Source of the DNA: a virus
Taxonomy: Duplodnaviria > Caudoviricetes
Strand: one strand, 5' to 3'
DNA length: 64,000 bases
Virus record (IMG/VR): IMGVR_UViG_3300025389_000011
Positions within the stretch are counted from its first letter, which is position 1; each line of letters opens with the position of its first letter. This document shows positions 207 to 6,078 of the stretch, piece after piece. The position numbers and the translations under genes were made by a program. The notes under the pieces are model-generated. The model was not told where the DNA came from, ran no database searches, and saw only the letters and a list, made by a program, of their open reading frames with translations.

Positions 207-222
207 ATTTTGGATAGATTGA

Positions 223-1227
223 CTATTTGATAGGAACTAGGTTGTCTCTAAAGATTTCCCATGCACGTTTCCAAGACCAACGAAAACTACCTTTCAGTAC
301 TTGATTTCTGTCTAATTGTAAACAGCTATCAATAGCATGGGTTAGGTTCTCATTCATGAACCCCGTGACCCCTTGTTCAATTACATCCATAGGACCTTGA
401 CAAGGGTATGCCGCAACTGGCGTACCACACGCCATTGCCTCAATCATTACAATACCAAATGTTTCCCATTGGCTGGGGAATACAAATACATCAGCATTTG
501 CATAATAGACTGCCAAGTCTTTACCTGTTTTGAAACCAACAAAATTAACATCAGGATATTTTTTCTTGTACGTTTCTAACATAGGACCATCACCAACCAT
601 TGTTTTTCTTGCGCCCGGATAATCTAATTCAAAAAAGTCTTCTAAGTTTTTTTCTTTGCTAACACGTGCAACGCACAATAAATCAATTACACCCACTTCA
701 CTATACTCATGTCTTTGTTTAGTATTGAAAATTGTTCTATCAACCCCACGTGTCCATGGAATAACTTCACCGTCAAATCCATGCTTACGTAATTCAGCAA
801 CCATGCTGTCAGTCGTTGTTAAAACCTTGCCACTATGCTTATGAAACCAGCGTACAAAGCGCCAAGTAAGTGATTCAGGTATTCCAAATAGTTTGTTAAG
901 TCCTTCAGGGAATTTAGTATGATAAGCAGTATTGTGCCTAATACCACATTTTGCAAGATATGCTCTAGCCCACAAACCAAGAGGACCTTCTGTGGCGATG
1001 TGGATATGATCCGGATCAATCTTCGCAATCTTCTTGCCCATGTTCCTTGGATAGCTAAGTTTGACTTCGTTGTAGCCAGGACAATCAATATAGCTGAACC
1101 ACCTGGGGTCAATATAATCAATAGTATAACCATCCAGTATCGCAGGAGCCTCAAGATTTTTGTAAGTCGTGACAACGCCATTGATTTGATCCGGTAAATT
1201 ATCCGTTATTATCAGTATTTTCTTCAT
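223..1227 (-). CDS. GT4 (GT-B) glycosyltransferase, Agt/MgtA-like diacylglycerol glycosyltransferase
   Basis: TDNLPDQINGVVTT, IHIATEGPLG, AYHTKFPE, WTRGVD, ARVSKEKN, VGDGP, ADVFVFPSQWETFGIVMIEAMACGTPV are the motifs of the Agt/MgtA branch of GT4. Confidence 0.85.
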   Translation of the reverse strand: MKKILIITDNLPDQINGVVTTYKNLEAPAILDGYTIDYIDPRWFSYIDCPGYNEVKLSYPRNMGKKIAKIDPDHIHIATEGPLGLWARAYLAKCGIRHNTAYHTKFPEGLNKLFGIPESLTWRFVRWFHKHSGKVLTTTDSMVAELRKHGFDGEVIPWTRGVDRTIFNTKQRHEYSEVGVIDLLCVARVSKEKNLEDFFELDYPGARKTMVGDGPMLETYKKKYPDVNFVGFKTGKDLAVYYANADVFVFPSQWETFGIVMIEAMACGTPVAAYPCQGPMDVIEQGVTGFMNENLTHAIDSCLQLDRNQVLKGSFRWSWKRAWEIFRDNLVPIK

Positions 1228-4826: not shown

Positions 4827-4900
4827 GTTTTTAATTCCTTTTTAAAACGTTATTATAATTTTTATTATCTAAGATGTATGTGATTGTAGTCACAAAGATT

Positions 4901-4929
4901 GAAAGAAAGCCCACATATAAGTGGGCTTT
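4901..4929 (-). terminator. Rho-independent terminator closing the tmRNA transcript
   Basis: Stem AAAGCCCAC/GTGGGCTTT (4906-4929) with a 6-nt loop, followed by CTTTC on the minus strand. Confidence 0.8.
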
Positions 4930-5089
4930 GGTATTTTCTGTTTCGAGGTATATCCTACCCAATAGTGGCTTACGCCGCTAAAGAATAAACGCTATCGTTT
5001 GCATTTATAAGTTTTGCTTGATTTACGGTCATCGCCTACCGAGTTGTCCATTTACGTACTTATCACCCTGTCGAAACCAAGTCAGGCCC
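4930..5089 (-). ncRNA. ssrA: tmRNA coding piece (permuted two-piece ssrA); tag (A)ANDSVYSLAA at 5002-4970
   Basis: Starts GGGCCTGACTTGGTTTCGACAGGG (tmRNA 5' signature). pk1-like stem CGGT...ACCG. ATAAAT|GCA resume context. Tag ORF GCAAACGATAGCGTTTATTCTTTAGCGGCGTAA with its stop in a TAGCGGC-GTAA-GCCACTA hairpin. 3' end approximate. Confidence 0.93.
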
Positions 5090-5090
5090 A

Positions 5091-5213
5091 TCAAAAATTA
5101 TCATTCCATAGCTGTTCTAATTCAGGATCTACTGGGCCATGATCGGCAACAAGTGCCCATACATTTACTACTACCCAGATAATACCTATTGAATAAAACC
5201 AATGCCATTCCAT
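5091..5213 (-). CDS. 40-aa membrane peptide encoded in the tmRNA intervening segment (not in ORF track)
   Basis: MEWHWFYSIGIIWVVVNVWALVADHGPVDPELEQLWNDNF*. SD AAAGG directly after the CCA, 6 nt from the ATG; stop ends 1 nt before G1 of the coding piece. Confidence 0.7.
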   Translation of the reverse strand: MEWHWFYSIGIIWVVVNVWALVADHGPVDPELEQLWNDNF

Positions 5214-5224
5214 ATAATACCTTT

Positions 5225-5289
5225 TGGTGGACCTGGCGGGAGTCGAACCCGCGTCCAGAATGCCTTTCGGCTCACTTCATACAACAATA
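5225..5289 (-). ncRNA. ssrA: tmRNA acceptor piece (T-arm + CCA)
   Basis: ...GACGCGGGTTCGACTCCCGCCAGGTCC-A-CCA. CAGGTCC pairs with GGGCCTG (5089-5083) including the G3.U alanyl determinant. CATTCTG/CAGGGTG and GTTGT/ACAAC form helix 2 between the pieces. 5' end inferred from the promoter. Confidence 0.92.
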
Positions 5290-5295
5290 ACTCTC

Positions 5296-5324
5296 AGTAT
5301 ATATTTATTTGATAATACTGTCAA
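5296..5324 (-). promoter_or_regulatory. sigma70 promoter of the tmRNA, with an embedded late-type ATAAATA
   Basis: TTGACA (5324-5319), N17, TATACT (5301-5296); ATAAATA at 5308-5302 inside the spacer. Confidence 0.8.
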
Positions 5325-5339
5325 TAACGGATTTACCCG

Positions 5340-5471
5340 TTATTTTACGGCTTCTGTATGCTTACCGTCAAGACTTTTTTTCAATAACTTAAACCAAAGT
5401 TTTTTAACTTTTTCTAAATTATGTTCAAACTCAGCCTTGTTGAGTTTCATGATTAGTTTTTTAACTTTCAT
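5340..5471 (-). CDS. 43-aa Lys-rich small protein (not in ORF track)
   Basis: MKVKKLIMKLNKAEFEHNLEKVKKLWFKLLKKSLDGKHTEAVK*. Strong SD AAGGAGG; ATAAATA at 5498-5492 upstream. Confidence 0.75.
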   Translation of the reverse strand: MKVKKLIMKLNKAEFEHNLEKVKKLWFKLLKKSLDGKHTEAVK

Positions 5472-5490
5472 AATAAACCCTCCTTGACTA

Positions 5491-6078
5491 TTATTTATTC
5501 GCTAGGGGATTGTCTACAGCTTTTTGAATTTTAGCATCAACTTCTTTCTTTAATGCTACCATTTCACGGTCAATGTCTTTACGCATTTGAGCATTTTCTT
5601 GGCGCATTGCTTGAAGTTCTGCACGTTCTTTATCCAAATCTTCACGAACACCTTTACGCAAGTCACGCATTTCGGCGTCACTTTCACGGTTTGCATCCTT
5701 AACATAACGTTCAACTTGTTCAGTAACAGTTTCAGTTCTACGGATATCACCTTTTAAATCATTCTTGATGTCACGTGTATAGTCAGAAGTTTTTTCGCTA
5801 TTTTGTTCAATAACGGCTAGTCGTTTATCAAATTCACTTAAGTCTGGTGCTACATATTTGGCAATTTTATTTTTCATGTCCATATAGTCTTTGTACACCT
5901 CAAAACAACCATATAGTCCGCCCAATATAGAACTTACCAAGGTAAATGCTACCATTAGTTTTGCCGGAGTAAATTCATATCCACCAATACTAATAACAGT
6001 ATCTTTACTTGCGTATTTTTTTACAGCTTCTTCTGCTTGGTCAATTTTTTCATTGACATCTTTAATTTCTTCTGTCAT
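5491..6078 (-). CDS. Membrane-anchored coiled-coil protein
   Basis: TM segment LMVAFTLVSSILGGLYGCF followed by ~130 aa of E/K/R-rich heptads; SD AAAGGAAAA. Confidence 0.75.
   Translation of the reverse strand: MTEEIKDVNEKIDQAEEAVKKYASKDTVISIGGYEFTPAKLMVAFTLVSSILGGLYGCFEVYKDYMDMKNKIAKYVAPDLSEFDKRLAVIEQNSEKTSDYTRDIKNDLKGDIRRTETVTEQVERYVKDANRESDAEMRDLRKGVREDLDKERAELQAMRQENAQMRKDIDREMVALKKEVDAKIQKAVDNPLANK

Follow-up and report, generated by a model that had tools for sequence, protein, structure and literature searches.

A candidate slot for small-protein genes in the intervening segment of permuted phage tmRNA genes

In Alpha- and Betaproteobacteria and in cyanobacteria, transfer-messenger RNA (tmRNA) can be encoded by a permuted gene in which the acceptor piece, ending in CCA, comes first and is followed by an intervening segment (IVS) and then by G1 and the coding piece (Keiler, Shapiro & Williams 2000; Rfam families RF01849-RF01851 and RF04321). 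Here we analyse a gene with the same order of parts on a 64,000-nucleotide (nt) stretch of viral DNA, referred to below as the window, from the IMG/VR record IMGVR_UViG_3300025389_000011 (Duplodnaviria; Caudoviricetes). The 135-nt IVS of this gene contains a 40-codon open reading frame (ORF), and comparison with related loci leads us to conclude, with good confidence, that the segment is a gene slot holding a real 40-codon gene. The window gene resembles the cellular ones in its G3:U70 pair, its Ala-initiated tag ending in LAA and its beta-type IVS of the form NAAG ... TGAT before GGGG. Unlike them, however, the window lineage appears to use the IVS for coding and to exchange it as a cassette. 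The cellular beta-type genes sampled span 325-345 nt, as compared to 435 nt for the window on the same model, so that their IVSs would be too short to accommodate an ORF.

The closest precedent is the IVS with an S23p ORF in the 23S rRNA genes of Coxiella burnetii and Leptospira. Similarly to the window IVS, this element (PMC4990558) is closed by a stem, is excised from the precursor of a stable RNA, carries an ORF and has spread horizontally; in Coxiella it is excised by RNase III, and its ORF has no working ribosome binding site (RBS), is seemingly untranslated in vivo and is decaying. The window lineage differs in its tRNA-type processing ends, in having a Shine-Dalgarno (SD) sequence and a stop codon in the closing stem, and in its diverse cargo, which appears to be under purifying selection. 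S23p (PF05635) was rejected as an identity for the window peptide, as the peptide matches no Pfam family at E <= 0.05 and the RNA is a tmRNA rather than a 23S rRNA. A protein gene in a part of the tmRNA gene that is absent from the mature RNA is also known from group I introns, which occur with homing-endonuclease genes in the tmRNA T-loop (PMC11915505). In the window, in contrast, the frame lies between CCA and G1, its removal would proceed through processing of the permuted precursor and not through splicing, and the cargo is not an endonuclease. A group I intron in the window tmRNA was rejected: the Rfam scan gives the two tmRNA families only, and the T-loop TTCGACT is uninterrupted.

Permuted tmRNA genes with extra cargo have been described in aquatic phages: in the two-piece ssrA of Melnitz and the pelagimyophages, the 3' domain contains a predicted glutamine riboswitch (PMC9004378). 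The riboswitch is an RNA element, and the paper reports no gene in the IVS; the window lineage is of beta type and resides on freshwater jumbo-phage contigs. In mitochondria, tRNAs are said to punctuate the polycistronic transcripts, an idea reportedly due to Ojala, Montoya and Attardi in 1981. The likeness is that a coding sequence is bounded by tRNA-type 3' and 5' processing sites, as also in a homolog of the window peptide that lies between two tRNA genes. The window differs in being of bacterial or phage type, with an SD sequence and an encoded CCA, in that its bounds are the halves of one tRNA-like domain, and in that release of an mRNA is not the model that we prefer. Finally, the dual-function RNAs SgrS/SgrT and RNAIII/hld combine a functional RNA and the mRNA of a small protein in one transcript; in the window, by comparison, the coding part is predicted to be removed from the functional RNA on maturation, and the cargo is interchangeable.

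The initial annotation of the window, made from the sequence alone, knew of no described case of a gene nested in such a segment. We likewise found no description of a protein gene in a tmRNA IVS in the searched literature on two-piece tmRNA, which included the 2025 tmRNA database paper and the Melnitz and Sinorhizobium Ribo-seq papers; the IVS oddities in the database paper are a tRNA gene and a repeat element, and no protein gene (PMC11915505). If our reading is correct, the IVS of two-piece tmRNA, treated as disposable, would be a widely used and rapidly exchanged expression slot for small phage genes.

A 40-codon frame between the two tmRNA pieces

By covariance model, gene order and tag, the RNA gene in the window is a permuted (two-piece) tmRNA. 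ARAGORN calls it at 4879-5317 on the minus strand (all features of the gene and its IVS are on this strand) with the tag ANDSVYSLAA, and the Rfam scan of the window gives full-length matches to both RF04321 (tmRNA_permuted; 138.8 bits, gathering score 47, model positions 1-213) and RF01850 (beta_tmRNA; 134.4 bits, gathering score 84, model positions 1-331). The acceptor piece (5225..5286; RF04321 positions 1-62 start at 5286) comprises the 3' half of the tRNA-like domain, the T-arm, the acceptor 3' strand CAGGTCC and ACCA, with the encoded CCA at 5227-5225. CAGGTCC-ACCA (5235-5225) pairs with GGGCCTG (5089-5083) to form the acceptor stem, in which the G3:U70 pair is present. The coding piece extends from G1 at 5089 to 4904, the position reached by RF01850, and ARAGORN places in it the tag frame (GCA...TAA, 5002-4970), which begins with Ala and closes with LAA and a stop (ANDSVYSLAA*). 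Between CCA and G1 lies the IVS (5090..5224), which is predicted to be absent from the mature RNA: both covariance models place about 111 nt here as an insertion.

The coordinates of a gene nested exactly inside this segment, as first annotated, hold base for base. CCA is followed directly by an SD-like AAAGG (5220..5224) and, after 6 nt (TATTAT, 5219-5214), by the ATG at 5213-5211, so that the start codon has an SD-like site at proper spacing; 40 codons then lead to the TGA at 5093-5091, and a single T (5090) separates the stop codon from G1. The resulting TGAT (5090..5093) thus combines the stop codon with the -1 nucleotide ahead of the predicted RNase P site. The ORF (5091..5213) and the peptide read from it initially are those of the program-made ORF list.

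Exact and near-exact copies of the window ORF are present on dozens of freshwater metagenome contigs. Two 90% clusters together comprise ten 40-aa peptide variants, including that of the window; the frame is kept in all of them, one having been called with extra residues at the N-terminus. Seven distinct DNA versions differ at 17 sites (3/5/9 over the three codon positions), all in the central 83 nt; the first 22 and the last 18 nt, which form the closing stem, are invariant. Pattern scans at the DNA level found relatives of the window IVS on two further contigs, in both cases with the frame intact. Frameshifts or stops scattered at random through homologous segments, which the initial annotation had named as evidence against a gene, are not seen: the ten variants and the more distant homologs all keep the frame, in a set gathered with a bias towards called ORFs.

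The peptide begins with MEWHWFY, continues with a hydrophobic helix and, after a hinge, ends in an amphipathic helix that is acidic; it is devoid of Lys and Arg. An AlphaFold2 model built on ten close variants has helices at residues 4-23 and 30-39 around the hinge DHGPVD, with a mean predicted local distance difference test (pLDDT) score of 85.9. Composition and model together back the transmembrane helix and acidic tail that had been read from the sequence at the outset, and we consider the membrane a likely location for the peptide. A profile search against 1.8 billion representative proteins retrieved seven further homologs of 32-50 residues and 43-63% identity. Most are 37-42 aa long (the extremes are a 32-aa deletion variant and a protein called with a 10-aa N-terminal extension), and they have in common the MEWHWFY N-terminus, the hydrophobic helix and the C-terminal motif DPE(I/L)E(Q/K)(M/L)W(Q/N)DNF. 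For the family as a whole the pooled ratio of non-synonymous to synonymous differences per site (pN/pS) is 0.46, uncorrected and with pS saturated at 0.63, and the variable sites are distributed 26/20/34 over the codon positions. A similar-looking 41-aa cargo of another IVS (L243) was rejected as kin, as there is no BLASTP match between the two.

The genomic contexts of the homologs are varied. One (L400) lies inside the IVS of another permuted tmRNA, with a tag of 29 residues. A second (L402:611-908; 57% identity) lies between tRNA-Ala(TGC) and tRNA-Gly(GCC) of a phage tRNA cluster, with its ATG 14 nt past the CCA and its TAA 6 nt ahead of the next tRNA. A third (L403) abuts a permuted tmRNA, with its end no more than a few nucleotides from the tmRNA 5' start, a fourth (L405) is located 180 nt upstream of one, and a fifth (L406) is free-standing and is followed by a terminator and an AhpC gene. 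Across these five contexts it appears to be the protein that is conserved and not the RNA setting. Conservation of the peptide in such varied DNA surroundings is the reason why we take the window ORF to be a real gene, one that is very probably translated. The comparison further suggests a microprotein family that recurs on the precursor transcripts of stable RNAs: in tmRNA IVSs, between tRNAs and abutting the tmRNA 5' end. At a further locus (L219:1838-2416), where the window microprotein is in the IVS, a ClpP protease gene (PF00574) is found directly 3' of the tmRNA gene and two tRNA genes upstream.

Cargo of intervening segments across the phage lineage

Phage tmRNA genes were gathered by their T-arm and acceptor sequence only, blind to IVS content. 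The collection comprises 189 permuted genes with 140 unique IVSs of 11-340 nt, which fall into 100 sequence clusters. Among clusters with an IVS of at least 120 nt, 27 of 30 have a spanning ORF where shuffles lead one to expect 0.74, a count reached by none of 200,000 simulations; the numbers are 10 of 28 (5.0 expected) for 80-119 nt and 8 of 35 (10.7 expected) for 50-79 nt. Long IVSs are therefore long because of the ORFs that they hold. All 18 ORF-bearing loci tested are full-length tmRNA_permuted matches (92-152 bits). An SD-like GGA, GAG or AGG in the first 11 nt of the IVS is associated with the presence of an ORF (both in 30 clusters, an ORF alone in 15, an SD alone in 5 and neither in 43; odds ratio 17, p = 1.4e-8). 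Where pN/pS could be computed, namely for seven cargo families, it lies at 0.24-0.74, and at 0.28-0.66 in the five with more than a handful of differences; in a family of 22-24-residue membrane peptides the ORF changes length in steps of one codon (IVS of 89, 86 and 83 nt). The test that had been suggested at the outset, namely whether the spacers of permuted phage ssrA genes keep an open frame with synonymous-biased change, thus comes out in favour of coding in this phage tmRNA lineage, with open frames in excess and the pN/pS values given above.

One cargo is recognisable. The 268-nt IVS of L295 reads CCA, TAAGGAAGTTTA, ATG, 84 codons with WCGPC, TGA, T and GGG, and its product (213-464, minus strand, inside a tmRNA_permuted match at 28-539) is a thioredoxin (PF00085, 75.4 bits with a cut-off of 23.5, E = 4e-21; phrog_22). 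The window peptide, unlike the L295 cargo, has no PF00085 match, and we regard the thioredoxin as an unmistakable positive control for predicted coding in the same slot.

In 8 of 37 ORF-bearing clusters there is no stop before G1, and the frame finishes inside the tmRNA coding piece. Such stop-less frames, about a fifth of ORF-bearing IVSs, extend 27-96 nt into the coding piece with variable ends; they were seen with an IVS of 101 nt at each of the loci L011, L065, L081, L086, L237, L242, L248, L255, L260 and L269, and further at L018, L258, L268 and L382. One stop-less family is a Cys-rich peptide (CPxC ... HKC), whose message would be non-stop if the IVS were excised.

The window IVS is 90-100% identical among tmRNA genes whose acceptor pieces are 45-84% and whose coding pieces are 49-77% identical. 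Seven different tags occur among the genes that carry it, and each of the nine loci examined with Rfam matches tmRNA_permuted over its full length. When mapped on a tree built from the mature parts of 82 representatives, the state of bearing an ORF has to change 28 times, with at least 18 changes forced by well-supported branches, as compared to 25.8 for shuffled labels. Identical 90-nt acceptor pieces are combined with unrelated IVSs at L282 and L279; the L279 IVS (79 nt) is ORF-less and has a T-arm-like hairpin, GTAGGTTCGAGTCCTAC, and L282 has a 26-codon ORF instead. Because its content is unlinked from tmRNA phylogeny, the IVS behaves as a swappable cassette, and the slot appears to hold many unrelated small genes that are exchanged independently of the mature tmRNA parts. 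The halves of the tRNA-like domain, which are the most constrained sequences of the gene and lie on either side of the IVS, probably provide the homology arms by which co-infecting phages exchange it. This suggests a general principle in which phages swap cassettes by way of fixed arms of homology that the most conserved RNA elements supply. The proposed class of small genes could easily be overlooked, as an annotation pipeline will either hide such a gene beneath the tmRNA or report it and miss the tmRNA around it. Such a class would also link cargo such as membrane microproteins, thioredoxin and Cys-rich peptides to phage takeover of ribosome rescue.

Five loci with the window IVS (L199:1428-1746, L210:1428-1744, L212, L213 and L217) have an unusual T-loop, GGCAGTG rather than TTCGACT, and their D-loop analogue has changed to match it, from TGGTTTCGAC to CAGGATCGAT; they score 92-138 bits on RF04321. 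The tag region is mosaic between otherwise near-identical tmRNA genes, and very long tag frames (ANANT...SARTAK...) occur at L205 and L208 (27 residues) and at L400/L401 (29), while relatives have ordinary 10-residue tags. A beta-type permuted tmRNA junction is also present on a 4.5-kb contig (L385; CAZVFG010000104.1) binned with an uncultured Methanoregula metagenome-assembled genome. This is probably a misbinned bacterial or phage contig; the 2025 database paper suspects misbinning for its own archaeal tmRNA calls (PMC11915505).

Processing hairpin, competing explanations and proposed mechanism

The ends of the IVS are alike whether or not an ORF is present. Among clusters with an IVS of at least 50 nt, the 3' end is TGAT in 67/93 and TAAT in 23/93, and nearly all 5' ends are TAAA, TAAG or AAAG. 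The first 10 nt of the IVS pair with the nucleotides just before TGAT at a mean of 9.6 of 10 positions, in ORF-bearing and ORF-less IVSs alike; the control value, for pairing with the 3' end of another IVS, is 7.9 of 10. Cellular betaproteobacterial two-piece tmRNAs (Azohydromonas, Oligella, Thauera) have the same CCA-NAAG ... TGAT-GGGG ends. Order-level sampling of 151 genomes for cellular beta-type tmRNAs gave 4 full matches. RNase P prefers a U at position -1. Since the same ends are found in ORF-less and cellular IVSs, the position of the SD, the stop codon and the spare nucleotide appear to be inherited from the processing hairpin. The claim of exact nesting is therefore upheld as to coordinates, but an SD directly after CCA, a stop and one spare nucleotide, which had been taken as properties of the ORF, are largely features of the RNA.

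The ORFs seem to have exploited this inherited frame: AAG is strengthened to AAGG, AAGGA or AAGGAG in ORF-bearing IVSs. The 5' strand of the hairpin would provide an RBS right after CCA, and its 3' end would provide TGA and the -1 U before G1, which amounts to an RBS and a stop codon built into an RNA-processing stem. It also explains why unrelated cargo proteins, including the thioredoxin, share their final residues (VSL in the TAAGGAAGTTT type), since the last codons are the 3' strand of the stem. In the window, the 5' strand of the basal stem (5214..5224), which includes the SD, pairs in both the minimum free energy and the centroid fold with the 3' strand (5094..5104), which is invariant in all relatives and encodes the last residues of the peptide, N-D-N-F. 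The whole window IVS folds as a long hairpin that extends the acceptor stem (-48.7 kcal/mol, z = -2.57), and the predicted fold has the SD paired with the 3' end of the ORF. Several of the apical substitutions among relatives break predicted pairs and none is compensatory. RNA structure was accordingly rejected as the cause of apical conservation in the IVS.

Several points weigh against our reading. The window IVS by itself gives no significant signal, as a spanning ATG or GTG ORF is present in 8.8% of dinucleotide-preserving shuffles with fixed ends (p ~0.09), and the codon-position bias among close relatives (3/5/9) is weak. Close relatives and distant homologs alike were gathered via called ORFs, which biases the set towards intact frames, and those ascertained at the DNA level number two. 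At five nucleotides (AAAGG) the SD is short, and the predicted fold pairs it. U-rich RNA easily yields hydrophobic peptides, to which AlphaFold readily gives helices. Searches of Pfam (E <= 0.05), PHROGs and the ESM Atlas returned no family or function for the window peptide, and blastn of the tmRNA and of the SD-type CCA/IVS junction against cultured phages returned matches to the T-arm and acceptor only, with no SD-type IVS. Lastly, the choice between precursor and excised IVS as the main template, in which we lean slightly towards the former and give the latter a lesser chance, is one that we infer.

Could the ORF be incidental, the IVS being only a processing hairpin or spacer with a frame open by chance and conserved through recent spread by recombination? 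The shuffle value for the window IVS (p 0.088), the inheritance of an SD-like AAG and of TGA from the RNA, and the merely 17 differing sites among close relatives are what this explanation would lead one to expect. We nevertheless consider it highly improbable, given a peptide family that is 43-63% identical with the same length and motifs in contexts without an IVS hairpin, ORFs in 27 of 30 long IVSs against 0.74 expected, and a thioredoxin in the same slot at L295. No more credible is an IVS that acts mainly as RNA, whether as a regulator of folding or processing, as a decoy or as a small RNA after excision, with the ORF secondary or vestigial. The hairpin is indeed more stable than shuffles (z = -2.57), its basal stem is invariant and maintained across the lineage, and phage permuted tmRNA genes can have RNA cargo such as the glutamine riboswitch (PMC9004378). 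However, the apical substitutions disrupt predicted pairs without compensation, the cargo of different IVSs is unrelated as RNA and yet always an open frame, and homologs of the peptide outside IVSs keep the protein and not the RNA context.

A gene in the slot could be read from either of two templates. One possibility, which we regard as doubtful but worth weighing, is that the excised 135-nt IVS hairpin is itself the messenger, punctuated by tRNA-type ends as in mitochondria and translated after its release by RNase P at G1 and a cut directly past CCA, which would leave the SD 1 nt from the 5' end and the stop codon 1 nt from the 3' end. In keeping with this, a CCA end and an RNase P-type site delimit the gene in the window and likewise its homolog between tRNA-Ala and tRNA-Gly at L402 (which fits the precursor and excised-IVS models alike), a single nucleotide lies between stop and G1 in 21 of the 37 clusters with an ORF, and the IVS evolves as a self-contained unit. 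Against it, the SD would be locked in the 10-11 bp closing stem that is predicted for the released hairpin, and 8 of 37 clusters would give non-stop messages. Bacterial 3' maturation of tRNA-like ends normally begins with an endonuclease cut downstream of CCA, and such a cut would clip an SD that starts at +1. In addition, the excised 23S rRNA IVS of Coxiella is rapidly degraded (PMC4990558). The precursor is favoured by the expected clipping of the SD at +1 after CCA by 3' maturation, the need of the 8 of 37 clusters without a stop before G1 for an unprocessed precursor, and the pairing of the SD in the folded RNA.

With the precursor as template, a ribosome would load on the nascent or unprocessed RNA in the seconds that precede synthesis of the 3' stem strand and its pairing with the SD. 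On reaching TGA it would cover G1 and the acceptor 5' strand, so that folding of the tRNA-like domain would have to wait and translation and folding would be mutually exclusive on one molecule. Once the RNA folds, the SD would be locked in the stem, RNase P would cut at G1, 3' maturation would trim to CCA and expression would stop. As expression would end on folding and processing, the peptide would be made in a pulse tied to tmRNA transcription and would then insert in the host inner membrane. We propose that this makes the locus a natural system where translation competes with RNA folding and RNase P processing on a single molecule. A further-reaching idea, which we think unlikely, is that tRNA-type processing sites serve phages as punctuation by which small-protein messages on stable-RNA precursors are made or timed and thereby coupled to tmRNA rescue. 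If true, a cleaved message would end 1 nt past the stop, or be stop-less in about one-fifth of slots, and the finishing ribosome would be a natural substrate for the tmRNA cut from the same precursor. The phage would then have a built-in coupling or sensor between the level of the cargo protein, the maturation of tmRNA and the capacity for trans-translation.

Transcription unit and neighbourhood

The tmRNA gene and its IVS appear to form a single promoter-to-terminator unit, with a precursor in the order acceptor piece, IVS and coding piece. A consensus scan (11/12 matches) places a sigma-70-like promoter (TTGACA, 17 nt, TATACT) at 5296..5324, and its TTGAC and TATA(C/G)T are retained in an alignment of diverged relatives. 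At the other end, the inverted repeat AAAGCCCAC/GTGGGCTTT followed by a T-run forms a putative intrinsic terminator hairpin (4906..4929), which corresponds to the hairpin at the 3' end of RF01850.

The window is part of a 103-kb IMG/VR viral contig that is estimated to be 29% complete; as contigs of relatives reach up to ~340 kb, the window phage is probably a jumbo phage. In the 103-kb contig, itself only ~29% of the genome, we found no SmpB, ClpP or RNase P RNA (RF00010), and a 20-kb megablast query taken from the window had no match among cultured phages.

Just 5' of the tmRNA promoter there is a 43-codon Lys-rich ORF (5340-5471, minus strand), and the closest relatives have a gene of 36 or 43 residues there. 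The island 3' of a conserved gene for a 195-aa protein (window 5491-6078) is variable, holding tRNA arrays or other genes, as seen when window positions 4870-5490 are compared with L119:4189-5682, L122 and L144. Among 554 relatives found via this neighbouring gene, a permuted tmRNA is present at that place only in L131 and partly in L132; most relatives have, at the place of the window tmRNA, 10-13 tRNA genes on the opposite strand.

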